Origin: Nitrospirota bacterium
GTDB taxonomy: Bacteria; Nitrospirota; Thermodesulfovibrionia; SZUA-242
Assembly (NCBI GenBank): GCA_027021335.1
Contig: JALUUO010000111.1
Coordinates: forward strand, 498 to 64,497
Reading direction: 5' to 3'
DNA length: 64,000 bases
Positions 8,980 through 50,398 of the stretch are shown one piece after another. Position 1 is the stretch's first letter. Each line of letters starts with the position of its first letter. The notes under the pieces are model-generated. The model was not told the origin of the DNA and ran no database searches. It worked only from the letters and a program-made list of their open reading frames with translations. The position numbers and the translations under genes were made by a program.

Positions 8980-11396
8980 TTCAAGCCCCTCTCTTTCACG
9001 ATTCGTGGCGTAATAAAAATCAGCAGCTCAGTAATCTCATCAATTTTACTGCTGGACTTAAACAGCCAGCCAAACCCTGGAATATCTCCAAGAATAGGGA
9101 TTTTAGTTTCACGCTCGGTAAAGTCCTTGGTGTATATCCCTCCTATCACTATTGTATCCCCATCCTTAACCAGCGCCTGCGAGGTCACCTCGTTCAAATC
9201 AATGCTGGGACCATCTGGCGTATTAACACCAACTGCGTTGCGGGTAACAAGCAGTTTCAGTTGAATATATCCGCCTGGCGTGATCTTAGGCGTAACCTTA
9301 AGACTCAAAGTGGCATCAACAAACTCTGTCTGTGTGCCCTCCTGGGAAACCGACTTATACGGAATTTGCGTACCCTGCTTAACCTCTGCCTCTTCATTGT
9401 CCATGGTCATTATTCTGGGATTCGAAAGCGTTCTGCCTCCATTTAATTCCTCTAAAGCAGCCAGCTGTACATCCAGGGTAAGAGCATCAGCTATACTTCC
9501 AAGGGATATGGACATATTCGGGTCTATGCCTCCAAATCCCACATTGGTTGCCAGAGATCCACCTATCCTGTTTGGAAACTGCACACCGGTAGGGTTGCCA
9601 TGAGCGGCATCCAAATTCAATGTTCCAGACCAGTCGATTCCCAGATCCTTTGCAGTGCTGGTTCTTATGGTGACCATCCGGGCTTCTATCAGAACCTGCT
9701 GCTTGGGAATGTCTATTATTTTGACAAGGTCCATCAGCTTATCTATGCTTTCCTGGACATCCTGAATGATTATCATATTCATTCTTTTATCCACACTTAT
9801 ACGCCCTCTTGTTGTCATTATCTTACCCTGCCTAAGTGACGTATAAACATCCTGTGCATTTGCATAGTTTAATGCAATTGCACGCTGATATAGTTCTCCG
9901 GCTCTGAGCTTAGAGTCCCTGCTTTTGGCAACAGTATCCTGTTCACTGGCAAAAATTTCCGGTGGAGCAACCCTAAGAATGTTACCCTCGATCACCTTCT
10001 TCTGTCCGGACAACTTAAGAACAATGTCCAAAGCTTGATCCCAGGGAACATTCTTAAGATTCAAACTAGGAATTCGTCCTTTGACTTCAGGGTGAATAGC
10101 AAGGTTGTATCCCCCAACGTCAGCCAATAACCTGAGTATTTGAACCACATCGGCATCCTGAAAGTCTAGAGATATTCTCTTACCGGCATGAGTCATAGCC
10201 TTATCTGCCAGTGGCACAGCTTCTACCTGAGCGATATCTTTAGTTAGATCCTTTGGCTCTTCCACTACTGCCACTTCCGAACCTGCTTCAACCGTGGTGG
10301 CATCAAAAACTGCAGCAGGCGGAACTATAGAAACAATAATACCTGCCGGTCCTGTGCTAACATCATACTCGGTTGTTTCATAAAGGTCGATCACTACTCT
10401 TGTTTTATCCCTGTAAGCTCCAGCCCGTATTGCCTTTATAGGTGAAACTACAGACTCAACAGCACCGGTTACCGCCGGAGATGCCCCAGGAACATCCACA
10501 ATAATACGTCTTCTACCAACAGCGTAAACATCAGGCTCTACTTCTTTATCAGTAGCAATTTCCACATTAACCCGACCGTCAAAACTCCCAACCGTGATAC
10601 CTGTGATAGTAGAGACGGCCGGAGCACCGGCATTTTCAATCTCGGCTGAAGCGGCCACTTTTTCCTCTTTAACCACAGCTCCAACCTCGGCTGAAGATTG
10701 AGCATTTTCTTCGGCCGCGGCAAGATCGGCTTGTTCGGCCTGCCCGCCGTGAACACCTTGGTCGGACGAGAGACCATCGGCAGGCGAAGTCTGATCCGCC
10801 TCTTCCGTATGTTTCGGTTTTGCTGCTACAGCGACAATACCGGACAAGGCCTGAGCTTCAGTTTCAGGCGCTGGAGATTCTTCTTCTATCGCCGATACAC
10901 TTTCTATCGCTGGTACGCTCTCTGCTTCTGCTACAGGTGGAGAAGCAGGTACTGCCGCCGCAAGAGACTGAGACTTTGGTATTTCCAGTAATAGATGATT
11001 TCCCTCGATTCTGGGCGCAATATCGATAGGAGCCGTCAAGCCAATCTCAAAACGGGCCATAGGCGATGGAGTTTTAATCTGTTTAGGAACTATTTCAAAA
11101 ATGGAATCCTTGTCAACCAGGATTCTCTGCGTATGTTCACCTAAGTTGGCTGCCGTAAGTTCCACAACAACACGAAAAGGATCAGACGGCTTGTACATTG
11201 TAAAAACAAGCGGCATGTCTGCTTCTATGTCAATAATTTGTCTGTCGCTTTTGTCGATTACCTTAACGCTTTTGATCGAAGGACCTTGGGATACAACAGG
11301 AGTTTTTTCCACCTGAGCGCCTGCCGAGCCATAACCGGCAAAAGCAAAAATAAGAAAAAAAAGCAGAAAGAAAGACCGGGATCTATTCTTCATCAT
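8976..11396 (-). CDS. pilQ: Type IV pilus secretin PilQ
   Basis: N-terminal AMIN-like domains separated by an Ala/Glu/Pro-rich linker, a secretin N domain, and a C-terminal secretin domain (…ELLIFITPRIV). The gene follows pilMNOP. Confidence 0.9.
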   Translation of the reverse strand: MMKNRSRSFFLLFFLIFAFAGYGSAGAQVEKTPVVSQGPSIKSVKVIDKSDRQIIDIEADMPLVFTMYKPSDPFRVVVELTAANLGEHTQRILVDKDSIFEIVPKQIKTPSPMARFEIGLTAPIDIAPRIEGNHLLLEIPKSQSLAAAVPASPPVAEAESVPAIESVSAIEEESPAPETEAQALSGIVAVAAKPKHTEEADQTSPADGLSSDQGVHGGQAEQADLAAAEENAQSSAEVGAVVKEEKVAASAEIENAGAPAVSTITGITVGSFDGRVNVEIATDKEVEPDVYAVGRRRIIVDVPGASPAVTGAVESVVSPIKAIRAGAYRDKTRVVIDLYETTEYDVSTGPAGIIVSIVPPAAVFDATTVEAGSEVAVVEEPKDLTKDIAQVEAVPLADKAMTHAGKRISLDFQDADVVQILRLLADVGGYNLAIHPEVKGRIPSLNLKNVPWDQALDIVLKLSGQKKVIEGNILRVAPPEIFASEQDTVAKSRDSKLRAGELYQRAIALNYANAQDVYTSLRQGKIMTTRGRISVDKRMNMIIIQDVQESIDKLMDLVKIIDIPKQQVLIEARMVTIRTSTAKDLGIDWSGTLNLDAAHGNPTGVQFPNRIGGSLATNVGFGGIDPNMSISLGSIADALTLDVQLAALEELNGGRTLSNPRIMTMDNEEAEVKQGTQIPYKSVSQEGTQTEFVDATLSLKVTPKITPGGYIQLKLLVTRNAVGVNTPDGPSIDLNEVTSQALVKDGDTIVIGGIYTKDFTERETKIPILGDIPGFGWLFKSSSKIDEITELLIFITPRIVKERGLK

Positions 11397-11950
11397 TCCT
11401 CCTCTTTTCGGAGTTCCAAATACGTGGTCTGCGGTGTCACCTCTATTTCACCCCTATAATTATAATTTTCTATCATTTCGACTATCTGCACAGAATTAAG
11501 ATTTATTTTTGTCACCTCTCCATTGTTCAAGCCTATATGGGTTCCTTTTCTCACCATAAAGCCCTTTCCATCAGGGGCAACAAGCATCGCGACATTTCCA
11601 TCCTTTACTGCGACTATTCCAATAAGCTTAAAGCTGCTGATGTCGTAACTTTCAAGTGGCGAGAGCCCCTTGGTTACCCTTTTCTTTTTCCTATCAGCCG
11701 GAGCAACAGCCTTAATAAGGCTTTTAAATGGATCGCGTTTTCCGGCATGAGTGTAGGAGAGAGTTTCCCTGTTTGTTATTTCAGCTGCTCTCGCAGCCGG
11801 GTCAAACTTAAGTTCCGGCTCCATTTTTTTTGCGGCAGGCTTTACAACAGGTGTTGTTTTTTTCGCTTCGCATCCAGGAAAAAATAACGCGGATACAACT
11901 ATAATACTAAACAGGAGCAGAAGTATATCACTTTTTTTAGCCCACGCCAT
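11393..11950 (-). CDS. pilP: Type IV pilus assembly lipoprotein PilP
   Basis: Lipobox FFPGCEA, ~185 aa, position between pilO and pilQ, 4-nt overlap with pilQ. Confidence 0.75.
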   Translation of the reverse strand: MAWAKKSDILLLLFSIIVVSALFFPGCEAKKTTPVVKPAAKKMEPELKFDPAARAAEITNRETLSYTHAGKRDPFKSLIKAVAPADRKKKRVTKGLSPLESYDISSFKLIGIVAVKDGNVAMLVAPDGKGFMVRKGTHIGLNNGEVTKINLNSVQIVEMIENYNYRGEIEVTPQTTYLELRKEEE

Positions 11951-11952
11951 GC

Positions 11953-12588
11953 CTAAGGTGTACCCCCTCCACTTTGCCCTGTATTGGATGTTGCAGCAAA
12001 AGCGGTAGCTACAAACTGTACGTCAAGCAGGTTTCCGGCAGCAGCATTTTCACTCTGTTTTTTACTGTCGGAGACCTTAATTTCCGAAATGTTAACTATT
12101 CTGGTCATAGCGCTTATCTGGCTAAAAAATCTTCCCAGGTTGTGATATCCGCCTGTAACGACAACCTTTACCGGAATCTCATCATAAAGCCCGCTAGGAT
12201 TCGTCCTTTTCTGTCCCGGAATCCAGGAAATAATTTCAAGTCCTGATGCCAGACCGAGATCCGAAATCTGACGTAAAAGACCGGACACCTCTTTCTCTTC
12301 CGGCAACTGCTCCTGGAGTTCCTTCAACCGTGCCTGCAACCATTCATTTTCAGCCTTCAACACCACCAGGCGTCTCGCCTTTGTCTCCTTAATGCTGATC
12401 TCATTCTCCTGTTTTTGTATCTGCATTAACAGACTGTTTATTTTCTTATTTTTCGGCTGATACTGAACAAAGTAGAACGCTACCACAAGCAAGACCGGAG
12501 CCAGAATCACGATAATTATCTGAACCCAGCCGGGCAGTTTGTTGATAGAGTTAAGGTTGAAATCTGTTTTTAATGCCAAAGCAGCCAT
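11953..12588 (-). CDS. pilO: Type IV pilus assembly protein PilO
   Basis: Single N-terminal TM followed by a coiled-coil, ~210 aa, positioned between pilN and pilP. Confidence 0.75.
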   Translation of the reverse strand: MAALALKTDFNLNSINKLPGWVQIIIVILAPVLLVVAFYFVQYQPKNKKINSLLMQIQKQENEISIKETKARRLVVLKAENEWLQARLKELQEQLPEEKEVSGLLRQISDLGLASGLEIISWIPGQKRTNPSGLYDEIPVKVVVTGGYHNLGRFFSQISAMTRIVNISEIKVSDSKKQSENAAAGNLLDVQFVATAFAATSNTGQSGGGTP

Positions 12589-12597
12589 AAAACCCCA

Positions 12598-13137
12598 TTA
12601 AACCTTCATATGCATCATAATCTTGAAAGAGTAGACAGGCACATCCTCAATATTAATCTTCTTTGTCTCAACAAGCACAACATTCGAAAAGTACTCTGAT
12701 CCTTTCAAGCTATCCACAAAAGTTACAATCTCGGCATTTGAAAAACCTTTGCCCGAAATTTTAATCAGCCAGTTGTTTTCCTCCAGGGAGTCAAGCCAAA
12801 CACCGCCTGTTACCCTTGATACCATCTCAACCATAAGGCGGACCGGCGCGTTCTGAGTCTGTTGCAGCCGTTCTATTATATTTTTCTTTTCTTCAAATGC
12901 CTTGTTGTTCGCCTCGTAGTTTTGAACCTCTCTGATTTGTTTATCCAGTTCAGCAATCTTTTTTTGATTGTTCTGCCTTTGTACCGTATAACTTTTAATT
13001 TTTTTATTTAAATAAGAGGAAGTGTAAGCAAGCCCGATAGCAGTACAAAAAAGTATCACAACCAGAGCGCCAATAAAAGGAGGAACAGGAATGGGTTTCT
13101 TTCGCCTTTTTACAGGAAGGAGATTGATTCTGATCAT
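12598..13137 (-). CDS. pilN: Type IV pilus assembly protein PilN
   Basis: MIRINLLP N-terminus, a TM segment, ~180 aa, and a 4-nt overlap with pilM. Confidence 0.8.
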   Translation of the reverse strand: MIRINLLPVKRRKKPIPVPPFIGALVVILFCTAIGLAYTSSYLNKKIKSYTVQRQNNQKKIAELDKQIREVQNYEANNKAFEEKKNIIERLQQTQNAPVRLMVEMVSRVTGGVWLDSLEENNWLIKISGKGFSNAEIVTFVDSLKGSEYFSNVVLVETKKINIEDVPVYSFKIMMHMKV

Positions 13138-14255
13138 CTGTCCCCAATCCTCCTTACTGCCAAACCCATAGCAATTACCAGCTGGGGAGCGACTTCCCTC
13201 AGCATATCCTTATCCAGTGTCTTTCCTATTCGGACGTTACGAAATGGGTCTATCATCTCAACTTCCATGCCGGTAAGCTCAGCCAGCCTCTGCTGAAAGC
13301 CTTTTATCAAAATACATCCACCGGAAAGCATCACTTTATGAACATCCTCATGCATAAAGGTTCCTTTAAAGTAGTCAAGGGAACGCGAAATCTCGTTAAT
13401 TATGTCTTCGGATGAATTCTGGATTATCGCATCTGCATCTTCTTCCGAAACTTCCTCTATCGTTTCCCCATGCTTAAGGCGTTCCGCATCCTCAAAAGTA
13501 AGGCCCAGCTCCTTCTGGATCGCCTCTGTCTGAATATTACTGCCAACCGAACTATCACGAGTGAAAACCGAAACCCCGCTTTTTAATATATTCAAATTGA
13601 TACGACTTGCCCCCACGTTTACCAGAGCCACGTTCTGCTCCGACTCAATGTCGTAATTAATCTCGTAAGCATTCTCCAGGGCAAAAGCATCCACATCCAC
13701 AACAGCCGGGGTAAGGTCAGCCTCCTGCACAACCGATACATACTCGTTGATTTTGTCCTTTTTGACAGCGACAAGGAGAACCTCCATCTGGTCCGCCTCT
13801 TCCGTGGGACCCAGTATATGGAAGTCCAGGTTTACATCATCAATATCAAATGGAATATATTGTTCGGCTTCGAAACGGATAGATTCCGTCAACTCATCCT
13901 CTGTCATTTCAGGTAGCGTTATTCTTTTTATAATGACAGATGAATGCCCCGATACGGAAATGGTTACGTTTTTAGTCTTGATTCCGGTGTTTTGAAATAA
14001 AGCTTTAAGGCCATCAACAACTCGAAGAGAGTCAAGTATCGATCCATCAACAATCAGTTCGGGTTCTATCGGCATTATACCAAACCGCTCGACCTGAAAA
14101 CCTTTAGATGTATCTTTTATCTCTATAACCTTGATATATCGCGAGCCTATATCCAGGCCGACAATCCGCTGGCTTCTAAAAAATGAGAGCAATTCAGAGA
14201 ATGGATCTAAAATTGACATACAAACGTTTTTAACAGAATGACTGATGTTTGTCAA
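13134..14255 (-). CDS. pilM: Type IV pilus assembly ATPase-fold protein PilM
   Basis: Actin/FtsA-like fold with VGLDIGSRYIKVIE near the N-terminus. First gene of pilMNOPQ. The start may be the internal ATG at 14219. Confidence 0.85.
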   Translation of the reverse strand: MTNISHSVKNVCMSILDPFSELLSFFRSQRIVGLDIGSRYIKVIEIKDTSKGFQVERFGIMPIEPELIVDGSILDSLRVVDGLKALFQNTGIKTKNVTISVSGHSSVIIKRITLPEMTEDELTESIRFEAEQYIPFDIDDVNLDFHILGPTEEADQMEVLLVAVKKDKINEYVSVVQEADLTPAVVDVDAFALENAYEINYDIESEQNVALVNVGASRINLNILKSGVSVFTRDSSVGSNIQTEAIQKELGLTFEDAERLKHGETIEEVSEEDADAIIQNSSEDIINEISRSLDYFKGTFMHEDVHKVMLSGGCILIKGFQQRLAELTGMEVEMIDPFRNVRIGKTLDKDMLREVAPQLVIAMGLAVRRIGDR

Positions 14256-40112: not shown

Positions 40113-40796
40113 GTGTTTAACCTTGGGAAAAACTGTTTTTGCAATCACTGGGGAAGATCGCTTATCGAACAACTGCTTGTAGTGGCCACTATAGGCATAG
40201 TAGCAGCTGTCGGGGTGCCGGAATACAGCAAATTTGCCTCTAAAAATAGAATAAAAAGAGCTGCTAACGACCTGGTCCAGGAGATGAGACTTACCAGGAC
40301 AATCGCCATGCTGGAAAACAGGGAGTATTTAATGATTTTCGATAAAGATCCTGACTCGAACCCCGGCACTAATGATGACAGATACCTTATCGGCTTTGAC
40401 GGAGATGGAGACAAGCAACTGAAAACCCAGGGCATCGATGGATACCAAAACGGGCCTGTAAAGGTTATAAACCTTTCCGATTATGGACCAGCTGTAACGT
40501 TTGGAACGCTTTCCGAACGCAGAACAAACGGCGACCCGGTGGATAACTCTTATTGCAAAGGCAAAACCGCCTGCTTCGGCAATACCAAGCCTGCACGTGA
40601 AGTATTCAAGCCCTCCGGATCTGTTGGTTTTAGAGGATCTGTATACTTTCAAGACAACCCGGATAAGTTCAACTCAAGAGGTTTTTCCTATGCTGTTGTG
40701 GTGAGCAACTTTTCCGCAAGAATTAACCTATGGCGCTGGAACGGTGAAAAAGATAAGCCGCCTTCAAGTTTTCCGTACTGGACGGAGCTGCGTTAG
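40113..40796 (+). CDS. Type IV pilin-like minor pseudopilin, FimT/FimU (GspH) family, paralogue 1
   Basis: Prepilin cleavage/methylation motif G|RSLIEQLLVVATIGIVAAVGVP (Glu at +5), ~210-aa mature protein, and a conserved C-terminal WRWNG...W.E. GTG start; the 14-aa leader is MFNLGKNCFCNHWG. Confidence 0.7.
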   Translation: MFNLGKNCFCNHWGRSLIEQLLVVATIGIVAAVGVPEYSKFASKNRIKRAANDLVQEMRLTRTIAMLENREYLMIFDKDPDSNPGTNDDRYLIGFDGDGDKQLKTQGIDGYQNGPVKVINLSDYGPAVTFGTLSERRTNGDPVDNSYCKGKTACFGNTKPAREVFKPSGSVGFRGSVYFQDNPDKFNSRGFSYAVVVSNFSARINLWRWNGEKDKPPSSFPYWTELR

Positions 40797-41058: not shown

Positions 41059-41793
41059 ATGTTTAGCATGAAAAGTATCTATTTCTGCAACCGGCGTGGC
41101 GTATCTCTTATCGAGCTGGCTGTTGTAATTGCGATTACAGGTTTTATAGCGGCCATAGGAATTCCTCAATACAGCAGGTTTGCTGCTAAAAACAGTGTGC
41201 AAAGATTTGCAAGCGACTTGGTCCAGAATATAAGACTTGCAAAAACAATAGCTGAAAAGGAAGACAGAGAGTATTTAATAGTTTTCGACCAGGTTAATAA
41301 CAGGTACTTATTCGGCTTTGATGGAAACGGTGACGGCGATCTTCTTGACGTTACTATTGATGGATTCGGAACCTGCCAATATGATGCAAATAATAATGGA
41401 ACCATAGAAGAAACTGAAAGAACTCCGGCTAATGATCAGGATCTTAATCTCGACGGCGTGCCTGATTGCATAAGAGTTGTGAATTTAAACGATTATGGGA
41501 ACTACGTAGCAATCGGTTATCAGGAACTAGACTCAATAATGCCGCCAAACCCTCCAGATCCAGATTATCCGCCTATTCCCGCTACCGGCCTGGATTTTCC
41601 TGGTAATACTATTGTTTTTAACAATTTAGGTGCCGTTGATAGCCCGGGGTTTATTTACCTTCAGCATGCCAACACCAACAGCGGTTACAGTTACTGCGTA
41701 GCTGTAGTCGGATTCGCAGGTGGAGTAAGCATGTGGAGATGGGATGGAGATGCGGCAAGGCCAGCTGTGACAACATGGACGGAGGTAAGATGA
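41059..41793 (+). CDS. Type IV pilin-like minor pseudopilin, FimT/FimU (GspH) family, paralogue 2
   Basis: G|VSLIELAVVIAITGFIAAIGIP prepilin motif. Clear paralogue of the 40113 gene (shared ...NRIKR/VQRFA.DLVQ..RLA/TRTIA...EYL..FD...YL.GFDG.GD... and a C-terminal WRW.G). The 14-aa leader is MFSMKSIYFCNRRG. Confidence 0.7.
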   Translation: MFSMKSIYFCNRRGVSLIELAVVIAITGFIAAIGIPQYSRFAAKNSVQRFASDLVQNIRLAKTIAEKEDREYLIVFDQVNNRYLFGFDGNGDGDLLDVTIDGFGTCQYDANNNGTIEETERTPANDQDLNLDGVPDCIRVVNLNDYGNYVAIGYQELDSIMPPNPPDPDYPPIPATGLDFPGNTIVFNNLGAVDSPGFIYLQHANTNSGYSYCVAVVGFAGGVSMWRWDGDAARPAVTTWTEVR

Positions 41794-42290
41794 AACAGGG
41801 GAGGGCAGGACAAAACGGCTTCACACTTGTCGAGGTTCTTGTGGCGCTTGTAGTGCTGATATCCGGTATGCTTGGAGTAATGGGCATGCAGTACATGTCT
41901 GTGCAGGGAAACGCTACAAGCAGAAATATGAGGGTTGCCACAAATCTTGGACAAATGCAGATGGAGATGTTACAGGCAACGCCATTTAATAATCTCGCGC
42001 AAGGCAATGACTCTCCTGTGCTGGACAATTCGACATCCGGAGGTGTTGTGTTTCAAAGAATATGGTGGGTGCAGCCAAACTGTTCTGTTCTTGCATTAGG
42101 CATAAATGATGCAAATGACAACCCCGCTGATCCATGCAACCCTGCTCTTTTAGGCACGGATATCTGTGTCGTGGATCCCGACCCCGCTGCTGCAGCGCCG
42201 GTTTCGGCCATTCGTGTAAGAACCTGCTGGACCGACCGCTTCGGCAACGCTCACTCGGTAACCTTTAACGATGCCAAGAACAATCTTTAG
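41790..42290 (+). CDS. pilV: Type IV pilus minor pilin PilV
   Basis: MKQGRAGQNG|FTLVEVLVALVVLISGMLGV is the canonical PilV N-terminus. Strong GGAGGTAAG RBS. The start overlaps the stop of the preceding gene. Confidence 0.8.
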   Translation: MKQGRAGQNGFTLVEVLVALVVLISGMLGVMGMQYMSVQGNATSRNMRVATNLGQMQMEMLQATPFNNLAQGNDSPVLDNSTSGGVVFQRIWWVQPNCSVLALGINDANDNPADPCNPALLGTDICVVDPDPAAAAPVSAIRVRTCWTDRFGNAHSVTFNDAKNNL

Positions 42291-42312
42291 ACTCTGCGAG
42301 GTGGAATATATA

Positions 42313-43320
42313 ATGCGTTATAACAGAAACAATCTTGGTTATACGCTGGTGGAATTAATGGTTGCCACAGTGGTTGGAATGGTGCTGATAGCCGGAGCTA
42401 CAGCCACTTTTATCGTGCAAAACCGCTCTTATATAAGTACGGAGAGTGTCTCGGAGCTTAATTCTCAGTCGAAAACAGCCCTTAATATCATAACGGATGA
42501 TATCAGAAACGCCGGTGCCGGGACACCGTTTAACCTTTCTACAAATCCTATAAACGGACATACATCCGTTATAGAGTTTACTGACGGGGGCAATGTCGCA
42601 CCGGACTCCATTACGGTAGTAGGTGGATTCCGGGAAATAGGTAATATTACGGTTGACCCAAATACTCCGCTACAAATAGTTAACGGCAATAATATATGGA
42701 TTGCAAATGCTGCAGATCGTATAGACATAGACGACAGGAGCAACATAAACATTGACGGAACATTTTTTAGCAGAATTGTCAACTGCAACAATACAGGTGG
42801 CGTATGCACAAGTCCCGATGATTTCACGGGTGTCCTCCTAAGCCTGCCGCCCGGAGAGCTGGTCGTAAACCGGCCGGTATATCTTGTAGAAGATGTAACC
42901 TACTGCCTAAACGGCACAAATCTGTTCAGGATCAGAAGAAATGCCAATGTAGTGATCTGTACCGGTGGAGCTCAGTCTGACACGGAGCTTATAGCCCAGA
43001 ACATAGCAGATCTTCAGTTTGCTTACGCTGTTGATAATGACAATAATAGCCGTGTGGATATTGAAAAGGGCGACCCTAATATTCTCGACGATGCTGATTT
43101 CATTAATGACGGTGCTGAACTAGCAGCGCTGCAGCTAAACCCTGATACTATAAGGGCGGTAAGAGTAAGCATACTAGGCATATCAAACAGGGCAGACCCT
43201 GACATTACCACAGGAAACCCTCCAGCTATCATAGAAAACCGAGTGCATGCGGCTACCAACGACGGCTTTAAAAGACGGCTGTGGCAGACGGTTGTAATCA
43301 TGCGAAACATGCAGGAGTAA
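42313..43320 (+). CDS. pilW: Type IV pilus assembly protein PilW (minor pilin)
   Basis: MRYNRNNLG|YTLVELMVATVVGMVLIAGATATF prepilin N-terminus, ~335 aa. GAGGTGG RBS. Confidence 0.8.
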   Translation: MRYNRNNLGYTLVELMVATVVGMVLIAGATATFIVQNRSYISTESVSELNSQSKTALNIITDDIRNAGAGTPFNLSTNPINGHTSVIEFTDGGNVAPDSITVVGGFREIGNITVDPNTPLQIVNGNNIWIANAADRIDIDDRSNINIDGTFFSRIVNCNNTGGVCTSPDDFTGVLLSLPPGELVVNRPVYLVEDVTYCLNGTNLFRIRRNANVVICTGGAQSDTELIAQNIADLQFAYAVDNDNNSRVDIEKGDPNILDDADFINDGAELAALQLNPDTIRAVRVSILGISNRADPDITTGNPPAIIENRVHAATNDGFKRRLWQTVVIMRNMQE

Positions 43321-43334
43321 AGAGGAGGAATCTT

Positions 43335-43886
43335 ATGTTTACACAAAATAAAAATAGCATACAAAGTATAAAAAACGAACGCGGCTTTGTTCTCGTGGTG
43401 GCTCTTGTCCTACTGCTTGTCCTTTCGATAATCGGTGTGATGGGTATTACATCCAGCACGGTGGAAAACATTATGGTAGGCAATACAAGGCTCAGATCTA
43501 CTCACTTTTTCGAGGCAGACAGCGGAGTTCAGATAGCTATGCCTATGGTGAATCAGGTGATGGGAGATAAAAACAATGATGGATTTGCGGGTCTGATTCC
43601 TGACTTTAACATCAACGCCTTTGTTCAGGAGTTAACACTTCAGCCCTTTGCTCCGGATTGCAGAGACGATTTCAAGTTTGAGGGCAACGACGGGCTTGTA
43701 AGCGTGGACATCGACAGGATGTATAGAAGAAGGGCTGCCGGTTGTTCTATCGAATTCGCCAGTGAGGCGGATATCGCAGGCAGATGCACCAACGTGTTTT
43801 ACAGGATAAATTCTACAAGCGCCAGCGCAGAAACAGGGGCCAAGGCAACGGTAGGCACGGTTTACCGCTACGTTCCGACCAGATAG
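43335..43886 (+). CDS. pilX: Type IV pilus assembly protein PilX (minor pilin)
   Basis: MFTQNKNSIQSIKNERGFVLVVALVLLLVLSIIGV has a PilX N-terminal domain. AGGAGG RBS before the ATG at 43335. Confidence 0.75.
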   Translation: MFTQNKNSIQSIKNERGFVLVVALVLLLVLSIIGVMGITSSTVENIMVGNTRLRSTHFFEADSGVQIAMPMVNQVMGDKNNDGFAGLIPDFNINAFVQELTLQPFAPDCRDDFKFEGNDGLVSVDIDRMYRRRAAGCSIEFASEADIAGRCTNVFYRINSTSASAETGAKATVGTVYRYVPTR

Positions 43887-43918: not shown

Positions 43919-44221
43919 ATGAAGATAAAGACACTAAGAATATTTCTTTCGATATTATTTATCCTTGGAACAGCCGTGTATGCCTTTCCTGAATCCCTGG
44001 GTTCCCCTGAATGGAAAGTAGGAACAATTACCGATGTAAACAGAAACTCAATAGAAATTGACGGCAAGCTCTTCATTGTAAGCGCATTAGTCGAGATCAA
44101 AACCGTCAGAGGCGAAAAACTGGGCTCCGGCCTAGAGCTTCTCACAGGAGTTGAAAGTATCTTCTTTAAAGAAAAAGATGACAAAATCGTTGAAATTCGA
44201 ATATTTAAAAGCGCTCAATAA
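43919..44221 (+). CDS. Small secreted protein (signal peptide plus ~75 aa), unknown function, between pilX and pilY1
   Basis: Strong AAGAGGAG RBS and a signal peptide MKIKTLRIFLSILFILGTAVYA. No recognisable motif. Confidence 0.5.
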   Translation: MKIKTLRIFLSILFILGTAVYAFPESLGSPEWKVGTITDVNRNSIEIDGKLFIVSALVEIKTVRGEKLGSGLELLTGVESIFFKEKDDKIVEIRIFKSAQ

Positions 44222-44232
44222 GAGGTGACGTT

Positions 44233-47200
44233 ATGAAAGCAACTATAAATAAGACGGTTCTCAAAAGTATCTGCTTACTGATTATTGTCTGCCTGAGTGC
44301 CTTTATGCTTGCTACTGATGCCACGGCAATGGGCGGCGGCGGTGGCGGCGGCGGTGGCGGCGGCATGACCAGTCCTGCCGTCATTAATCCTTCCGGCGGC
44401 GCCCTTCCAGGCGGAGAGACAGGCACACTCTACAGCACTACGATAACTGCAAGCGGATGTGACGCAAACTACCGCTGGACCTTGACAAGCGGCAACCTGC
44501 CGCAGGGCTTATCGTTTTCCGATTTTTTCAGTCAGACCATTACGATTTCCGGAATGCCTGAACTGGTTGAAACCGCGGGATTCACCCTAGAGGTGGTGGG
44601 CGACGGATGCACCAGCACCGCAGCAACATTCACACTTAACGTAGTGCAGGGCAACAATCCGGTTATCACTACCCAAGGCCTTTTATACGGGCTTGTGGGC
44701 ACTGCCTATAGCGATACTATAACAGGAAGCTTAGGCACCACCGACTACGGCTGGAGCGTGGTTGCAGGCAGCCTGCCGGCCGGCTTGGCCCTGGATTACG
44801 ATGACGCTGTTCCGCGCGTTGCAACCACTCCGTCTGTAAATTTATCCGGAACCCCGACAGTCGCCGGACTTTACACTTTTACCGTGATGGTCACAGACAG
44901 CCTGGGCAAAACCGGTTCTAAGGATTTTACAATAGATATTCAAAACGATATTCAGATCATAACATCCTCCCCTCTTCCGGATGGAATGGAAGGAGTGCCA
45001 TACTCTCTTACTTTGCAAGGAATCGGAGGCAACAGTTCATTTTATCTATGGAATATCGTCGATTTGGGCAGCGATCCCTCTCTTCTTCCAGGCTTGGGCA
45101 TAAACGAGACAACCGGTGAACTATCGGGAATACCGACCCAGGAAGGAGACTATATTTTTACCGTTGTGCTTGAGGACACTTCTAACGGTTTTGCAGTAAC
45201 AAGGGATTTTACCCTTAAAGTCTACCCTAACGATCTCGCTTTTGATACTACCGTAATTCCGCCCGATGGTGTAGCCTGTACGACTTACACTGCAAATTTA
45301 GCAGGAACAGGTGGCACCCAGCCTTATAACTGGAGCCTGACAGCCGGCCTGCTGCCTCCGGGCCTGACACTGGCTGCCAACGGAACTCCATCCACAGTTA
45401 TATCAGGAACGCCTAGAGAGGCCGGTCTATTTGCTTTTACCGTATCCCTTACAGACAATGCCGGTGTTAACAGGCAAAGAACCTTTTCGATCTCAATAAC
45501 CGGTGATCCAAGCCCGTGCAGTGTTAATCTTGATTACAATACGGCATATCCACCGTTCATCTCGACGGCTGTAACCCCTAATGTTCTTCTTATACTGGAT
45601 AACTCCGGAAGTATGTATGAATTTGCCTATAAGGACCCTGGAACATCAAATGACAGGTCAACCCGGGATGTCAGTTACACGGCAGGCGTGCCCTATTACG
45701 GTTATTTCGAGTGCGACAAGGACGGTTTGATCACGTATACCTACAATGCCGCAGAAGGCTATTTCGAGCAGACTAACGTGGCCCTTCCGGCTGCTGACAG
45801 CTTTAACGGCTGTTTTCTCAACTGGCTTACAATGAGAAGAGTGGATATTGCAAGAAAAGTTCTAACAGGAGGTAAATACGACAGCGCCAATGGTTTACTG
45901 GTCGCTGCGGAAAGACCGAACAGAAACAGGTGGAAGGGCTACGACACCCAGACTTACAGGGTATATTATGATACAACAATAAGCAATTATGAACTGATAC
46001 GTGTCTGTACTGACGGAAGCAGCGGCAATTGCGATACCGGAGACGGCACATTTTATAACGTCAGGGTTAAAGTCAACAGCGAACCAAAAGGCATAATACA
46101 GGAAACTTACTCCCTTGTAAGGTGGGGCCTTATGTTTTTTAATACCTATGAGGGTGGATATCTAGATGTACCTTTGGATGGAGGGCCGCCGACAGAGCCT
46201 CCTCTTCCTCCAATCGATCCTGACCACTTAAACACCCTTGTTGAAGCTATACGAACCACGAACCCGACCACATGGACACCACTGGCCGAAACGCTTTACG
46301 AAGCCACAAGATATTACCAGCGTGAGGTCTCTGCCTATAACGGCGGCGTGGATTATTCCACATACCCTGATCCCATGCAGTTCGACTGCCAGAAGAACTT
46401 TGTGCTTCTGCTTACGGACGGTGAATCAAGCAAGGACGAAAATCTTCCTAACTCATGCCTGGGCGGCTCAGTCACCGACACAAATTTCGATATTCAGGAA
46501 TACATGACCAGAATCGCGGATAACGAGGGACCCTCACTTGATAACGGACTGGGCATAGGCATAACCTGGGGTGACCAGGCTTGTCAAAACGCCAACAGCA
46601 TTGACGGCACGTTTTATCTCGAAGGCGTGGCATACTATGCCAACACAAACGATATGAGACCCGATCTAGCCGGTGATCAGTTCGTTAAAACCTATACCGT
46701 TTTTGCATTCGACGAATCCCCTATCGGAGCCGGAATTCTGCAAACAGCCGCCAAGTATGGAGCTTTCAAGGATTCAAACGATAACTTACCTTATCCTATC
46801 CCTGATGTAGCAGATGAGTGGGATAAGGATGCCGATGGAATCGCGGACAGATTTTTTAAGGCTTCCGAAGGTGGATCTCTTGCCGGTAAAATCAAAATGG
46901 CCCTATTTGATATTCTTCAGAAGAAGTCCTCAGGAACATCAGCTGCCGTGCTTGCAACCACATCAAAGGGAGAAAGTGCTGCATACCAGGCCTATTTTCA
47001 ACCAACCATAATGACTGCCGAAGGAACTGCTGACTGGATAGGCGGCGTGTATGGATTGTTTCTTGATAAATACGGCAATACGCGTGAGGATGACCGTGGC
47101 GACGCGAGACTTTGCTATGATGTTAATAGTCCGCCTGGCTGCACCGCACCTAACAAAATAATTCAGATGTACTACGACAATGTTGATAATAAAACTTATG

Positions 47201-49410
47201 CCAAACGGTATCCAGGCACTGTGGTGCGTAACGGTATGGGTAACGGCATGCCTACTAGTCTTCCTGACGGAACACCTACCGGTATCCCCGAGGAAAAGAT
47301 ACCGATTGATGACGTAAAAAACCTATGGAACGGCGGCAACACGCTTTGGGCAAAAAATGCCGACACAAGAAAGATATTTACGACACTGAACGGTTACGAG
47401 TTTGTCTCAGCAGAGCTGCCCAATATCGACCCTGCTACAGGCAGCACATTTTATGATGGAAATGCAGCCGAGCTGCAAGTTAAACTCGGCGCCGGAGATG
47501 CAGCCGGATCCGCCGACATAATAAACTATATAAGAGGGGTTGATATACCGGGAAACAGGCCCCGGACAATCGGAATTGACATAACCGGCGACGGCGACTT
47601 TGACGATCCAGGAGAAATTAATGTCTGGAAGCTTGGAGACATCGTGTATTCGACTCCTGTTGTTGTGACCAGGCCTAGGGAAAACTATGATTTTCTGTAT
47701 AAGGATGCCTCTTACTTCTTCTATCTGAACAAATATTTCAGTAGAAGACATGTGGTTTATGCAGGCGCAAATGACGGAATGCTTCATGCTTTTAACGCCG
47801 GCTTCTACGATGCAAGAAATCTCAGGTACTGCAAGGGAGGCGACACTGACGCCGACAGGATAATCAGTGACACGGAATGCGCAGGCTCTGGCGAGCCTGG
47901 TCTTGGCGAAGAGCTATGGGGTTTTGTGCCGCGCGGAGTTCTGCCGACCCTTAAGCTGCTTATGAACGTAGACTACACTCATGTCTACTATGTGGACTTG
48001 AAGCCTAAAACAACCGATGTGAAAATTTTCGACTGCAACAATCCACCGGACGTTCATGTAGGAGATACTTCTGATTCAGTCTGCTGGGGAACCATCCTGA
48101 TCGGCGGATTAAGATACGGCGGAAAGGCTAATCCCGAGTACTTTGCCTTGGATATAACCGATCCGCAAAATCCCAGACTGCTCTGGACGTTTTCCGATCC
48201 TGGTATGGGCTTCAGTATGTCGCGTCCGGCAATAGCCAAGACATGTGACAACGGCGGCACTTGCAAGTGGTTTGCGATATTTGGGTCCGGAGCGACAGAC
48301 TACACACCGGACTCTGATCTTACCGGATTTTCGGCTGCAAACGGCCAAATCTATGTGCTGGATCTCTCATCAGGGGTAAATGGGGTTATAAGCAACTGGA
48401 CCGAAAACACTAATTTCTGGAAAAAAGATACTGGAAAACCGGCAACATTTATGTCCGACCCTATAACTGTTGACGGGTGGCTTGATTATGCTGTCGATGT
48501 AACCTACATCGCGGAGAATTACCAAACAGGAGGTGCATGGAGCACAAGGATCCTGAAGCTCACAACAAACCGGGGAACCCTTATCGATCCATCACTCTGG
48601 ACGCTTTCATCGCTTGCTGATGTAGCTTCCATCGATACCGGCAACCTGGATAAGATCAGAAGGATAACATCAGCGCCATCCATCTCTATGGATGAACAAG
48701 AAAATATGTGGGTCTTTTTCGGAACAGGACAGTTCCTGGGCTTACAAGATAAAAACCGTACAGACACAGGAGCCTTTTATGCTGTAAAAGATAAGAGAAA
48801 CTGCTGGGACAACAACAGCTGTCCCGAGGTGACTAACCTGTATAATGTATCCAGCGACGTTATATGCCCCGAAAAAGAGCCGGGAAGCTGTACGGCCACA
48901 ACAAGCCTGGGAAATCTGGAGCTTGATATTGAGCAAAATTACGATGGGTGGGTAATGTACTTTGAGAACCTTCTTGAAACAGTGGACTTTACAGGTGCGA
49001 CCCTTCTTCATACCGGAGAAAGAGTGCTGTCTAAGCCGCTGGTTCTTGGAGGCATTGTGACATGGACGACGTTTATACCTGGTGACGAAAAGTGTAACCC
49101 TGAAGGCGAAAGTAACATATATTCGGTCTACTATAAAACAGGTTCGTCATATAAAGATTACGTTTTCAATGCACAGGCATATAAAACCAAACAAAATAAC
49201 ACACCCGAGGCTGTTGCCAGGGTAAAAAGACTCGGCCCTGGAATGGCTTCATCTCCCAGTGTGCAGGTAACAGCAAAAGGCGCTGCAAATATAACAATAA
49301 CCGATCCAAACGGACAGCTTCTGCAGTTAAGAACTACACCGGCTTTTAGAGTTGGCGACACTCCTGTTACCTCGATAAACAAAGAAATTTATGACCCGGA
49401 TTGCAACTGA
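44233..49410 (+). CDS. pilY1: PilY1-like type IV pilus tip adhesin, 1725 aa, with N-terminal He_PIG/cadherin-like repeats, a vWA-like domain and a C-terminal PilY1 beta-propeller
   Basis: Signal peptide then a Gly11 tract; 4-5 'putative Ig' repeats (…Y..T..A.GG.....W.L..G.LP.GL.L…GT…G.Y.FTV…D); a vWA MIDAS (LLILDNSGSM); the PilY1 signature VYAGANDGMLHAFNAG and a Ca-binding-like loop DITGDGDFDDPGE. Its position after pilVWX is consistent. Confidence 0.8.
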   Translation: MKATINKTVLKSICLLIIVCLSAFMLATDATAMGGGGGGGGGGGMTSPAVINPSGGALPGGETGTLYSTTITASGCDANYRWTLTSGNLPQGLSFSDFFSQTITISGMPELVETAGFTLEVVGDGCTSTAATFTLNVVQGNNPVITTQGLLYGLVGTAYSDTITGSLGTTDYGWSVVAGSLPAGLALDYDDAVPRVATTPSVNLSGTPTVAGLYTFTVMVTDSLGKTGSKDFTIDIQNDIQIITSSPLPDGMEGVPYSLTLQGIGGNSSFYLWNIVDLGSDPSLLPGLGINETTGELSGIPTQEGDYIFTVVLEDTSNGFAVTRDFTLKVYPNDLAFDTTVIPPDGVACTTYTANLAGTGGTQPYNWSLTAGLLPPGLTLAANGTPSTVISGTPREAGLFAFTVSLTDNAGVNRQRTFSISITGDPSPCSVNLDYNTAYPPFISTAVTPNVLLILDNSGSMYEFAYKDPGTSNDRSTRDVSYTAGVPYYGYFECDKDGLITYTYNAAEGYFEQTNVALPAADSFNGCFLNWLTMRRVDIARKVLTGGKYDSANGLLVAAERPNRNRWKGYDTQTYRVYYDTTISNYELIRVCTDGSSGNCDTGDGTFYNVRVKVNSEPKGIIQETYSLVRWGLMFFNTYEGGYLDVPLDGGPPTEPPLPPIDPDHLNTLVEAIRTTNPTTWTPLAETLYEATRYYQREVSAYNGGVDYSTYPDPMQFDCQKNFVLLLTDGESSKDENLPNSCLGGSVTDTNFDIQEYMTRIADNEGPSLDNGLGIGITWGDQACQNANSIDGTFYLEGVAYYANTNDMRPDLAGDQFVKTYTVFAFDESPIGAGILQTAAKYGAFKDSNDNLPYPIPDVADEWDKDADGIADRFFKASEGGSLAGKIKMALFDILQKKSSGTSAAVLATTSKGESAAYQAYFQPTIMTAEGTADWIGGVYGLFLDKYGNTREDDRGDARLCYDVNSPPGCTAPNKIIQMYYDNVDNKTYAKRYPGTVVRNGMGNGMPTSLPDGTPTGIPEEKIPIDDVKNLWNGGNTLWAKNADTRKIFTTLNGYEFVSAELPNIDPATGSTFYDGNAAELQVKLGAGDAAGSADIINYIRGVDIPGNRPRTIGIDITGDGDFDDPGEINVWKLGDIVYSTPVVVTRPRENYDFLYKDASYFFYLNKYFSRRHVVYAGANDGMLHAFNAGFYDARNLRYCKGGDTDADRIISDTECAGSGEPGLGEELWGFVPRGVLPTLKLLMNVDYTHVYYVDLKPKTTDVKIFDCNNPPDVHVGDTSDSVCWGTILIGGLRYGGKANPEYFALDITDPQNPRLLWTFSDPGMGFSMSRPAIAKTCDNGGTCKWFAIFGSGATDYTPDSDLTGFSAANGQIYVLDLSSGVNGVISNWTENTNFWKKDTGKPATFMSDPITVDGWLDYAVDVTYIAENYQTGGAWSTRILKLTTNRGTLIDPSLWTLSSLADVASIDTGNLDKIRRITSAPSISMDEQENMWVFFGTGQFLGLQDKNRTDTGAFYAVKDKRNCWDNNSCPEVTNLYNVSSDVICPEKEPGSCTATTSLGNLELDIEQNYDGWVMYFENLLETVDFTGATLLHTGERVLSKPLVLGGIVTWTTFIPGDEKCNPEGESNIYSVYYKTGSSYKDYVFNAQAYKTKQNNTPEAVARVKRLGPGMASSPSVQVTAKGAANITITDPNGQLLQLRTTPAFRVGDTPVTSINKEIYDPDCN

Positions 49411-50398
49411 TAATTCTGTGATGACAAAGACGAAAACCGTTTACCTTCCAGTTTTGCGTATCCAGAGAGCCGCACTTGCTGCGGCCTTCTGGATGCTTGT
49501 TTTGGCACTTGCGGTTGGATGCAACAGCAATATCGATGAAGTTCCTGTCGAGACCGGCAAGAACCAACCAGGCAGTTATACTGCAACGGATGACATTTCT
49601 CAGGCAGGCGGAAATTCATCTTCTTTGTTCGATGTGAGCATCGGGCCTCCAAATGCCACAAAAGCGAGTATTATCCAATTGGATGCCGATCGATCAAAGC
49701 TTTACGGCGGAAATGTGAACTGGTATGTTAATGGCCTGCTGGTAGAGCATAACGGAGGAACTCGTTTATCGTACAAAGACATTTCCAGGGGCGATGTGAT
49801 AAAAGCGGTTATTGTCAAAGACGATGGAGAGGAAATATCGTCGAACGAGTTAGTTATTAAAAACTCTCCGCCGACTATTCAACAGGCCGAGGTGCAGCCG
49901 AAGTTCCCGATGGTCGGCAACACTCCAAAGGTTAAGGTTTGGGGCAGTGATATTGACGGGGATAAGGTTACTTTTGAATACCAGTGGTATGTAAACGGAA
50001 AACCTGACGGCAGGTGGAGTGTTCTTGAGGCGGAGTTCAAAAAGAGCGATAAAATCAAGGTTAAAATAACCCCTCATGACGGACTGGAGTATGGAAAAAG
50101 TGTAACCCTCACACCGATTATTACAAACGCCCCGCCTGTTATAAATACACACCGGGGAAGATACGACGGAAGTGTATATAGAAGTCAGCTTATGGCTGAT
50201 GACCCAGACAATGATACTCTGTTTTTCGAGCTGATTGAGGCGCCAGAAGGCATGAAAATAGATTCAGGCTCCGGCCTGATAACCTGGCGGGTTATATTAG
50301 AGGCGGAAAAAACTTATCCAATTAAAGCGCGCGTCTCTGACGGAAACGGCGGCAGCAGTGTTTACGCTTTTAAGCTGACAACACACCTGGAAAAATAA
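49391..50398 (+). CDS. Lipoprotein with internal WYVNG repeats and a C-terminal cadherin-like/He_PIG domain, immediately after pilY1
   Basis: Lipobox LALAVGCNSN. Duplicated module (NVNWYVNGLLVEHNGG.../FEYQWYVNGKPDGRW...). C-terminal PPVINT...DPDNDTLFFELIEAPEGMKIDSGSGLITWR. Overlaps the pilY1 end by 20 nt; start at 49391 or 49421. Confidence 0.5.
   Translation: MTRIATDNSVMTKTKTVYLPVLRIQRAALAAAFWMLVLALAVGCNSNIDEVPVETGKNQPGSYTATDDISQAGGNSSSLFDVSIGPPNATKASIIQLDADRSKLYGGNVNWYVNGLLVEHNGGTRLSYKDISRGDVIKAVIVKDDGEEISSNELVIKNSPPTIQQAEVQPKFPMVGNTPKVKVWGSDIDGDKVTFEYQWYVNGKPDGRWSVLEAEFKKSDKIKVKITPHDGLEYGKSVTLTPIITNAPPVINTHRGRYDGSVYRSQLMADDPDNDTLFFELIEAPEGMKIDSGSGLITWRVILEAEKTYPIKARVSDGNGGSSVYAFKLTTHLEK

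Follow-up and report, generated by a model that had tools for sequence, protein, structure and literature searches.

Contact between a type IV pilus and its surroundings is made by PilY1, whose variable N-terminal half is believed to determine what the pilus adheres to and senses. In the accepted model for vWFA-type PilY1 proteins, a priming complex turns into the complex at the tip, where the N-terminal domain lies outermost (PMC7541494, PMC13190605). AlphaFold-Multimer places the components in the order PilA-FimU-PilW-PilV-PilX-PilY1, with PilY1's N-terminal domain at the very tip (PMC13190605). A 2026 survey identified vWFA and DUF4114 as the sole conserved N-terminal domains in the PilY1 proteins studied and defined a calcium motif 1, Dx(D/N)xDGxxD, which is common at the propeller site without being universal, some PilY1 proteins having none (PMC13190605). 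Myxococcus xanthus PilY1.3 and other vWFA-type PilY1 proteins resemble the protein described here in combining a vWFA domain with a propeller, in being rich in Cys (27 residues in our protein), and in being co-encoded with minor pilins, in their case an own set of four (PMC7541494, PMC13190605). Pseudomonas aeruginosa PilY1 (PA4554, 1161 aa; C-terminal domain 3HX6) shares the propeller fold and family, the N-terminal vWA-type domain with a MIDAS, a gene position after fimU-pilVWX, and the conserved motifs LGDI..S.P and GANDGMLH.

The locus lies in a 64,000-nucleotide stretch of Nitrospirota contig JALUUO010000111.1 (the window). An original prediction had placed a 1725-aa PilY1 open reading frame at 44233-49410, with a He_PIG array followed by a vWA MIDAS and a PilY1 propeller, and both the frame and the order of its parts stand (Table 1). 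The frame is continuous from its ATG with zero internal stops, and a strong Shine-Dalgarno sequence (AAGAGGTG) is located 5 nt upstream of the ATG. An identical protein (P0001) is encoded on a 152-kb ENA metagenome contig. All motifs quoted in the prediction were found, with LDNSGSM at residues 455-461, GANDGMLHAF at 1178-1187, and DITGDGDFDD at 1116-1125. The product is predicted to be exported by the Sec pathway: on inspection, its N-terminus (MKATINKTVLKSICLLIIVCLSAFMLATDATA) combines a hydrophobic helix (residues 7-26) with an AxA motif, and the GFxxxE prepilin motif is absent from it.

Table 1. Features of the pilY1 locus and of the encoded protein (positions are those of the window)
Feature	Position	Strand	Basis or remark
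pilM-pilN-pilO-pilP-pilQ, type IVa pilus machine	8976..14255	-	Pfam PilM_2, PilN, PilO, PilP, Secretin+AMIN
FimU/GspH-like minor pilin, first of two in tandem	40113..40796	+	Weak Pfam GspH; NCBIfam GspH/prepilin below cut-off; pilin-type N-terminus
FimU/GspH-like minor pilin, second	41059..41793	+	N_methyl
PilV-like minor pilin	41733..42290	+	N_methyl; TIGR02523 PilV 1.9e-10, below cut-off
PilW minor pilin	42271..43320	+	Pfam PilW and N_methyl
PilX minor pilin	43281..43886	+	Pfam PilX_N 1.2e-13
100-aa secreted protein, family unassigned	43919..44221	+	Directly 5' of pilY1
pilY1	44233..49410	+	1725 aa: signal peptide, four He_PIG, vWA-like domain, beta-rich middle region, PilY1 beta-propeller
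Predicted Sec-type signal peptide, aa 1-32	44233..44328	+	Sequence inspection; hydrophobic helix also in model; A-T-A cleavage motif
(GGC/GGT)11 tract encoding 11-residue poly-Gly, G34-G44	44332..44364	+	Directly past predicted cleavage site
He_PIG/Ig-like repeat 1, aa 47-138	44371..44646	+	Most distal, least conserved (mean 38% identity)
He_PIG/Ig-like repeat 2, aa 139-238	44647..44946	+	Additional match to K319L-like PKD
He_PIG/Ig-like repeat 3, aa 239-331	44947..45225	+	Pfam, model, alignment
He_PIG/Ig-like repeat 4, aa 332-424	45226..45504	+	Most conserved repeat (mean 51%)
Linker, aa 425-449	45505..45579	+	Low-confidence in model; holds family-wide '(D)YTAYPPF' anchor, the start of the PilY1 core
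vWA-fold domain (by MIDAS and model), aa ~450-900	45580..46932	+	Large beta-rich insertion ~480-620; within PF28373
MIDAS D456-N-S458-G-S460	45598..45612	+	Rest of MIDAS: T682, D729
DKDADGIAD, aa 864-872	46822..46848	+	Exact match to calcium motif 1, in vWA region
Middle region, beta-rich and helical, aa 901-1130	46933..47622	+	Joins vWA to propeller; lower model confidence
DITGDGDFDD, aa 1116-1125	47578..47607	+	10-residue insertion, P0001-P0003 subclade only; low pLDDT
PilY1 C-terminal beta-propeller, aa ~1131-1640	47623..49152	+	Pfam PF05567; includes LGDIVYSTP, GANDGMLHAF
D1414-G-W-L-D-Y-A-V-D1422	48472..48498	+	Aligned to 3HX6 calcium site (DNNSDGVAD)
Probable lipoprotein, 335 aa, C-terminal He_PIG/Big_9	49391..50398	+	Overlaps pilY1 end

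Recognition of the C-terminal half as a PilY1 beta-propeller, also part of the original prediction, is borne out by profile and structure alike. Pfam T4P_PilY1 (PF05567) scores 51.1 bits against a cut-off of 28.1, and a Foldseek search with the propeller model (pLDDT 84, pTM 0.86) retrieved 3HX6 as the best PDB match (E 4e-20, TM 0.71), 14 orders of magnitude ahead of the next one (4e-06). Linking the two by sequence needed a family profile (E 6.8e-49 against 3HX6) rather than a single-sequence query; phmmer with the one sequence against PDB chains missed 3HX6 and returned one marginal match, to a collagenase PKD domain (E 0.24). Propeller identity to P. aeruginosa PilY1 is only about 20%, and the Nitrospirota protein further differs in carrying ~400 aa of Ig-like domains before the vWA domain and in a much larger vWA-to-propeller region (about 680 aa). 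Where P. aeruginosa has its D851-D859 calcium loop, our protein reads DGWLDYAVD, and calcium motif 1 is not found at this site. At ligand position 3, where 36 of 44 relatives have D or N, Trp occurs in this protein only, and position 6 is not Gly. Most relatives read DVDLDYxVD. With Trp at ligand position 3, calcium regulation of the P. aeruginosa type may not apply.

The N-terminal extension gives 98.9 bits with Pfam He_PIG (PF05345; cut-off 24) over four stretches, and the structure model contains exactly four beta-sandwich domains (~47-138, 140-237, 240-331, and 335-423; pLDDT about 85-92). The repeats announced for the first ~430 residues are therefore present, and their number is four rather than the "4-5" given. 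The description "cadherin-like" holds for the fold, Foldseek returning tandem cadherin/Ig arrays (E 1e-18 to 1e-14; desmocollin, protocadherin, and titin at 2e-18 to 1e-14), and does not carry over to calcium binding: in eight aligned orthologues, cadherin-type linker motifs (DxNDN, DxD, or LDRE-type) are not conserved between repeats, and the inter-repeat linkers (VVQGNNPVITT, IDIQNDIQIITS, and KVYPNDLAFDTT) are not conserved as acidic motifs. A rigid rod is unsupported because the repeats have no conserved linker motifs of this type. Two Cys pairs are invariant across the array-bearing clusters, one within repeat 1 (Cys76/Cys126) and one bridging repeat 4 and the following linker (Cys349/Cys429). 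Identity falls distally along a shallow gradient, repeat 4 averaging 51% and repeat 1 only 38%; repeat 1 is also shorter and richer in indels, which qualifies the gradient. The fall would be consistent with a ligand-facing distal end. Recent internal duplication and copying from the He_PIG domain of the neighboring lipoprotein were both considered as origins of the array and dropped, BLAST finding no significant similarity either among the repeats or to that domain.

Behind the array, the predicted MIDAS (LDNSGSM) is present and conserved in 44 relatives: D456, S458, and D729 are invariant across the 44-sequence alignment, S460 occurs in 41, and T682 in 42. The domain annotation that the original prediction had envisaged matched for He_PIG and for the propeller and not for a Pfam VWA family. 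The VWA families PF00092, PF13519, and PF13768 gave no match at E ≤ 1 to the whole protein, to aa 431-1110 alone, or to five relatives, and NCBIfam, VWA models included, gave none for the 1725-aa protein. The region of the vWA-like domain is instead covered by Pfam's new PF28373 'PilY1_homolog_dom'. The MIDAS motif and the alpha/beta Rossmann-like fold of the model support the vWA assignment, and the ~140-aa insertion past the first strand is probably what disrupts a match to the VWA profiles. The DKDADGIAD loop in this region takes the form EWDxDGDGxPD family-wide in the 44-sequence alignment. DITGDGDFDD, which had been offered as a hallmark, calcium-loop-like segment, did not survive comparison: of 44 aligned family members, 39 have a gap here, so that it is no PilY1 hallmark but an insertion confined to the subclade of the three closest relatives, and the canonical site aligns to residues 1414-1422.

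The genes upstream form a minor-pilin set, the window also encodes the pilMNOPQ machine, and homologous loci show matching synteny, with pilY1 right after the minor pilins in every locus examined. NCBIfam gave no match for PilX, the 100-aa upstream protein, or the lipoprotein. Given this domain composition, PilY1 homology, and operon context, we consider it likely, taken as a whole, that the gene is the pilY1 of a chromosomal type IVa minor-pilin operon (fimU-fimU'-pilV-pilW-pilX-orf100-pilY1-lipoprotein) and that the array serves as an additional module for contact or reach, which would most likely be what first meets surfaces, polymers, or partner cells. Location and orientation we infer by analogy with Pseudomonas and Myxococcus: the propeller would dock on the priming complex of the minor pilins PilV/W/X and would end at the tip. 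Since the N-terminal half of PilY1 is outermost at the tip, the array would lie farthest out, beyond the vWA domain with its intact MIDAS. If extended, it may form a thin string of ~15-18 nm that a flexible linker connects with the vWA domain, and retraction load would run from the disulfide-stapled Ig domains through the vWA domain to the propeller. The earlier proposal of an additional binding module with a specialised adhesion target is a plausible extrapolation from PilY1 topology.

The Ig array could also be folded back onto the vWA domain. With a pTM of only 0.54, the N-terminal model does not define how the Ig domains are arranged relative to the vWA domain, and it shows the linker that joins repeat 4 to the vWA domain as disordered. 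Such a fold-back would suit an array that binds nothing and acts as a passive spacer or shield, occluding or positioning the vWA MIDAS until force or contact, or protecting the tip from proteases or phage. The tie of the most conserved repeat to the linker through Cys349/Cys429 would fit a conserved intramolecular interface of this kind, and the vWA domain of P. aeruginosa PilY1 has been implicated in mechanosensing (PMC13190605). We nevertheless judge a spacer or shield unlikely: a free N-terminal appendage would be unable to space the pilus from the vWA domain, four domains are much protein for a lid, and the arrays found inside the vWA domain in related lineages are hard to square with a specific lid geometry.

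The function as a contact module at the pilus tip also has to be weighed against a PilY1 homologue that has left the pilus, as a free or outer-membrane-anchored fibrillar adhesin exported via the pilus, a T2SS-like route, or another. The degenerate canonical calcium switch site would fit such a protein, as would the conserved He_PIG/Big_9 lipoprotein encoded with it. The lipoprotein gene, however, is conserved 3' of extended and plain PilY1 alike in Nitrospirota, and a protein of 99-119 aa sits directly 5' of pilY1 in all related loci seen, that is, also where PilY1 is unextended. In every locus examined, moreover, pilY1 still stands immediately behind pilX as part of a full minor-pilin operon, and plain PilY1 relatives share its conserved propeller and C-terminal region, which makes a role off the pilus quite improbable. 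As both accompany plain PilY1 too, the 100-aa ORF and the lipoprotein were rejected as partners of the extended form. A sulfotransferase was likewise rejected, occurring only in the two closest loci in what looks like local synteny.

Relatives were collected with the 1295-aa core alone, as a full-length homology query was swamped by unrelated giant He_PIG proteins, and the core tree was built from core-only sequences anchored at the MIDAS. Seven other 90%-identity clusters (1646-1735 aa; ENA, JGI, NCBI, and Logan contigs) are collinear with our protein repeat by repeat, and the He_PIG-array bearers form one clade on the core tree, the lone apparent exception being an N-terminally truncated partial sequence. 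The four-domain array thus dates back to the common ancestor of a small clade that seems to occur in Nitrospirota only. Judged by the taxonomy of the relatives, a Nitrospirota bacterium is also the most likely source of our protein. Unextended PilY1 proteins of Nitrospirota and Desulfobacterota (for example P0121-P0141, 1215-1300 aa; PF28373 + PF05567) are 39-45% identical over 96-99% of the 1295-aa core and share the MIDAS, the EWDxDGDGxPD loop, and the operon with a ~100-aa upstream ORF and a ~330-aa He_PIG/Big_9 downstream gene; they differ in that the signal peptide is followed by the YTAYPPF anchor and MIDAS strand, with no Ig array between. That the long frame might be an assembly or annotation artefact joining a He_PIG gene to a separate pilY1, as could be suspected from the metagenomic source, the abundance of He_PIG genes (one directly downstream), and the slightly higher G+C of the He_PIG part (51.6% vs about 47.5% in the remainder of the gene), is already refuted by the recurrence of the collinear array and its junction, with the Cys pair, in those seven clusters from independent contigs and four data sources, and hardly credible given the continuous frame with its strong Shine-Dalgarno sequence, a signal peptide at the extreme N-terminus only, the monophyly of the bearers, and the position of the signal peptide in unextended relatives directly before 'YTAYPPF', which is internal here.

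The term "oversized" is apt insofar as the Ig extension adds ~400 aa, on top of a core that already measures ~1290 aa. The supposed norm of ~1000-1200 aa fails for this clade, in which unextended relatives reach 1215-1330 aa. Among the 150 best family representatives, the median is 1373 aa and the maximum 2252 aa, and 13 equal or exceed 1725 aa, so this length is not exceptional.

Ig arrays have joined PilY1 repeatedly and independently in related lineages. Other Nitrospirota have He_PIG repeats inserted inside the PilY1 vWA domain, and PilY1 of the Geobacter lineage carries Big_5 arrays at the corresponding N-terminal position. The Geobacteraceae proteins (for example P0191 from Geobacter sp. 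DSM 9736, 1582 aa; P0195 from G. pelophilus, 1713 aa) are of comparable length and likewise proceed from a signal peptide through a tandem Ig-like array of ~370-405 aa to a vWA/PilY1 core. In contrast to ours, their array consists of Big_5 (PF13205), sometimes with PF19078, and the Pfam propeller model often stays below threshold; the Big_5 clade is separate on the core tree, which indicates an independent gain. Outside type IV pili, Porphyromonas gingivalis Mfa5 (type V) and RrgA, GBS104, SpaC, and PitA (sortase pili) also combine a tip vWA domain and MIDAS with Ig-like domains; neither the pilus systems nor the assembly chemistry are related to those of type IV pili. There the Ig-like stalk carries the vWA head, whereas here the array lies on the side of the vWA domain opposite the propeller attachment.

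Because the survey lists only vWFA and DUF4114 (PMC13190605), the He_PIG array is an additional module type undescribed there and adds a third class of N-terminal module; our literature search found no paper linking PilY1 with He_PIG, Big_5, or bacterial Ig-like domains. The recurrent arrays support the idea of a pilus tip that evolves by domain grafting. It is tempting, if rather doubtful, to see in them a convergent, lineage-specific route to a long-reach grappling adhesin, with distal Ig domains separate from the MIDAS. If so, the distal Ig domains would add binding specificity (mineral surfaces, extracellular polymers, or partner cells of sediment and subsurface anaerobes), the tip would have two independent binding sites in array and MIDAS, and in this protein the Trp in the canonical site would mean that extension and retraction are no longer calcium-gated, unlike in Pseudomonas. 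Functional follow-up is hard because the organisms are uncultured. The gain is incremental, as the working model of PilY1 is unchanged and the architecture was already visible in automatic Pfam annotation; the He_PIG-extended PilY1 is genuine, yet it departs only modestly from an adhesin already known.

The sequence has two further small features. The poly-Gly stretch G34-G44 is unique to this protein and missing in all seven He_PIG-bearing homologues aligned. An RGD occurs at residue 955, and the RGD of P. aeruginosa PilY1 lies in another region.

The pilY1 reading frame is as originally predicted, with 1725 codons from an ATG, no internal stop and a strong ribosome-binding site (AAGAGGTG) 5 nt upstream, and every motif quoted for it is present (LDNSGSM, residues 455-461; DITGDGDFDD, 1116-1125; GANDGMLHAF, 1178-1187). 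An identical protein (cluster P0001) is found on the 152-kb ENA metagenome contig ERZ27262676 k141_269257. Pfam profiles matched He_PIG in four stretches (2.3e-28, 98.9 bits), a region also matched by the K319L-like PKD family, as well as the PilY1 beta-propeller family PF05567 (1.3e-13, 51.1 bits against a cut-off of 28.1), and precomputed annotation assigns the middle of the protein to the newer family PF28373 ("PilY1_homolog_dom"). An NCBIfam search returned no match, and the Pfam VWA models returned none even at E <= 1.

An alignment of 44 family sequences served to build two AlphaFold2 models. The first (residues 1-1110; pLDDT 81, pTM 0.54) comprises a signal-peptide helix (7-26), a disordered stretch including an 11-residue poly-Gly run, four beta-sandwich domains (~47-138, 140-237, 240-331 and 335-423), a disordered linker (430-445) and an alpha/beta domain that opens with the strand (450-455) of the metal-ion-dependent adhesion site (MIDAS). 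Foldseek relates this model to tandem cadherin/Ig arrays such as desmocollin EC2-5 (2e-18), titin and protocadherins. The second (residues 1101-1725; pLDDT 84, pTM 0.86) is a beta-propeller whose top Foldseek match is the C-terminal domain of Pseudomonas aeruginosa PilY1 (3HX6; E 4e-20, TM 0.71 on target; runner-up 4e-06), and the family profile matches 3HX6 at 6.8e-49. MIDAS residues D456, S458 and D729 are invariant among the 44 relatives, with S460 kept in 41 and T682 in 42. The profile, fold and MIDAS results therefore confirm the proposed build of He_PIG array, vWA domain and PilY1 propeller. Where four to five repeats had been claimed, four sandwiches and four He_PIG stretches are seen and no fifth, and the vWA assignment stands on fold and motif, without a sequence-family match.

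The locus is a chromosomal operon of minor-pilin genes and pilY1, ordinary for a type IVa pilus, with housekeeping genes (ispDF, aspS, guaAB, htrA, aroC and aroKB) on its flanks. The protein has the defining features of PilY1: its propeller is homologous to 3HX6, its gene belongs to a minor-pilin operon and it starts with a Sec signal peptide. That it acts as an adhesin independent of the pilus is a less likely reading. Related loci carry a single GspH/FimU-like minor pilin, versus two at the head of this operon. An ORF of 99-119 aa occupies the slot directly before pilY1 in all six related loci examined. Its 100-aa counterpart here could be a PilY1 accessory protein, resembling TfcP of Myxococcus xanthus cluster 1 in position only. 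Each Nitrospirota locus examined has a He_PIG protein of ~290-340 aa after or next to pilY1, with extended and unextended PilY1 alike; the probable lipoprotein in this place holds the slot that pilY2/pilE take in Pseudomonas. The sulfotransferase recurs in the locus of the closest relative (L002) and is absent from more distant loci, and its neighbourhood probably reflects local synteny and not a functional link. Beside the pilMNOPQ genes lies another Ig-domain surface protein, of the Big_1/Invasin_D3 type.

Features of the pilus genes and of PilY1 (nucleotide positions in the window; residues of the 1725-aa protein)
Feature	Position	Strand	Residues	Remark
163-aa ORF without family; 790-aa protein with Big_1/Invasin_D3 domains	6059-8979	-		after pilMNOPQ
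pilMNOPQ, complete	8976-14255	-		AMIN-domain secretin
GspH/FimU-like minor pilin	40113-40796	+		head of operon
GspH/FimU-like minor pilin	41059-41793	+		262-nt gap from the preceding pilin
PilV-like pilin, PilW, PilX		+		upstream of pilY1
100-aa secreted protein	43919-44221	+		signal peptide, no family match; directly 5' of pilY1
pilY1	44233-49410	+		
(GGC/GGT)11 tract	44332-44364			unbroken
DKDADGIAD	46822-46848		864-872	C-terminal part of vWA-like domain
RGD	47095-47103		955-957	single
Equivalent of P. aeruginosa calcium site	48472-48498		1414-1422	
Probable lipoprotein, 335 aa	49391-50398	+		…LALAVGC…; C-terminal He_PIG/Big_9; 20-nt overlap with pilY1 end
Sulfotransferase (Sulfotransfer_1/3)	50454-51275	+		next after lipoprotein

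A search with the full-length protein gave six full-length relatives, most matches being unrelated giant He_PIG proteins, and the core (residues 431-1725, without the array) retrieved 828. Among the closest unextended relatives (1215-1330 aa, 39-45% identity across 96-99% of the core), most belong to Nitrospirota/Thermodesulfovibrionales or "Deltaproteobacteria" MAGs, and JGI labels several of them PilY1. When extensions were scored from the MIDAS motif as anchor in the best 120 of the 828, ~91 had none, eight including the query carried a He_PIG extension (~430-450 aa ahead of the MIDAS), and 14, named Geobacter proteins among them, carried a Big_5 Ig-like extension of ~370-405 aa, with or without PF19078. 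In an exhaustive HMMER scan against 1.84 billion representatives clustered at 50% identity, the family numbered 5,999 at E <= 1e-3, of which 1,403 reached E <= 1e-30. Among the best 150, the N-terminal He_PIG form occurs in two only (P0002 and P0009) and Big_5 arrays in at least three (P0199, P0316 and P0349). The description of the protein as oversized did not hold: lengths in this set have a median of 1373 aa and a maximum of 2252 aa, with 27 representatives of at least 1600 aa and 13 of at least 1725 aa, and the query is therefore no length outlier. Its architecture is rare and phylogenetically confined; the He_PIG part is matched in three of the 80 best loci from GTDB species representatives, all Nitrospirota MAGs. 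The longest members, P0293 (2189 aa), P0343 (2252 aa) and P0374 (2065 aa), have ~775-880 extra residues before the core. These are candidate tip modules, and P0293 and P0343, the two largest of the best 150, have no Pfam match at E <= 1e-4.

A neighbour-joining tree restricted to the core groups the eight He_PIG-bearing proteins in a single clade, joined by a partial, N-terminally truncated sequence (P0138), and the Big_5 bearers in a separate one. The eight He_PIG N-termini align collinearly, repeat by repeat, and share two invariant Cys pairs, C76/C126 within repeat 1 and C349/C429 spanning repeat 4 and the linker. Collinearity, cysteines and tree dispose of the fusion artefact that had been raised as a possibility. 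BLAST detected no similarity among the repeats or to the He_PIG domain of the adjacent lipoprotein, which rules out recent internal duplication or local copying from that gene; the array is therefore old and was already four-domain in the ancestor of the clade. In two distant Nitrospirota PilY1 relatives, both MAG-derived GTDB representatives (L084, 1834 aa, L084:2405-7909; L076, 1680 aa, L076:2408-7450), the MIDAS strand lies at ~residue 49 and He_PIG/PKD repeats sit inside, not before, the vWA-like domain; L076 has DNSVDM and no recognizable DxSxS motif. N-terminal He_PIG, N-terminal Big_5 and He_PIG within the vWA domain thus represent at least three graftings of Ig-type arrays onto PilY1. 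The general point is that lineages of sediments and the subsurface added such arrays repeatedly and independently to a pilus-tip adhesin. A 2026 survey of PilY1 diversity identified vWFA and DUF4114 as the sole conserved N-terminal domains in the PilY1 proteins studied (PMC13190605), and our literature search found no paper linking PilY1 to He_PIG, Big_5 or bacterial Ig-like domains. Automated Pfam domain calls on public sequences already show the He_PIG-PilY1 architecture.

Pilus assembly is primed by a complex of PilY1 with the minor pilins PilV/W/X, which afterwards occupies the tip of the pilus, and multimer models give the order PilA-FimU-PilW-PilV-PilX-PilY1 with the PilY1 N-terminal domain outermost (PMC13190605). 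In such an arrangement the propeller would anchor the protein, the vWA domain, whose MIDAS is intact, would serve as the conventional head for adhesion and mechanosensing, and the four Ig domains would be suspended from the free end. Ig-like domains typically measure ~4-4.5 nm, dimensions from which the array would reach ~15-18 nm if extended; its inter-domain geometry is undefined in the N-terminal model. Conservation declines from 51% in repeat 4 to 38% in repeat 1, a gradient that is shallow but consistent with a ligand-facing distal end. The array is most likely an added contact or reach module; a role in shielding or regulation is less likely.

The segment DITGDGDFDD, put forward as a calcium loop and PilY1 hallmark, proved to be a 10-residue insertion confined to P0001-P0003, gapped in 39 of the 44 relatives and lying ahead of the propeller in a low-confidence part of the model. 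The counterpart of the P. aeruginosa calcium site (DNNSDGVAD) lies elsewhere, at the family consensus DVDLDYxVD, for which the query reads D1414-G-W-L-D-Y-A-V-D1422. At ligand position 3, 36 of the 44 aligned sequences have D or N and the query alone has Trp; judged from sequence, the calcium switch may be lost or altered in this protein alone. Its propeller has no canonical calcium motif, a motif that is not universal among PilY1 proteins (PMC13190605). The vWA-like domain contains DKDADGIAD, an exact instance of calcium motif 1, Dx(D/N)xDGxxD (PMC13190605). This loop is kept family-wide as EWDxDGDGxPD, is better conserved than the canonical propeller site and may be the main, putative calcium site of the family.

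The RGD tripeptide falls in the middle region, within a conserved "REDxxGD" stretch whose R951, E952 and D953 do not vary across the family. It is probably coincidental, and P. aeruginosa PilY1 has its integrin-binding RGD at another position. The poly-Gly run immediately following the predicted cleavage site of the signal peptide is absent from all seven orthologues, and the underlying in-frame trinucleotide repeat could vary in length by slippage or be sensitive to assembly.
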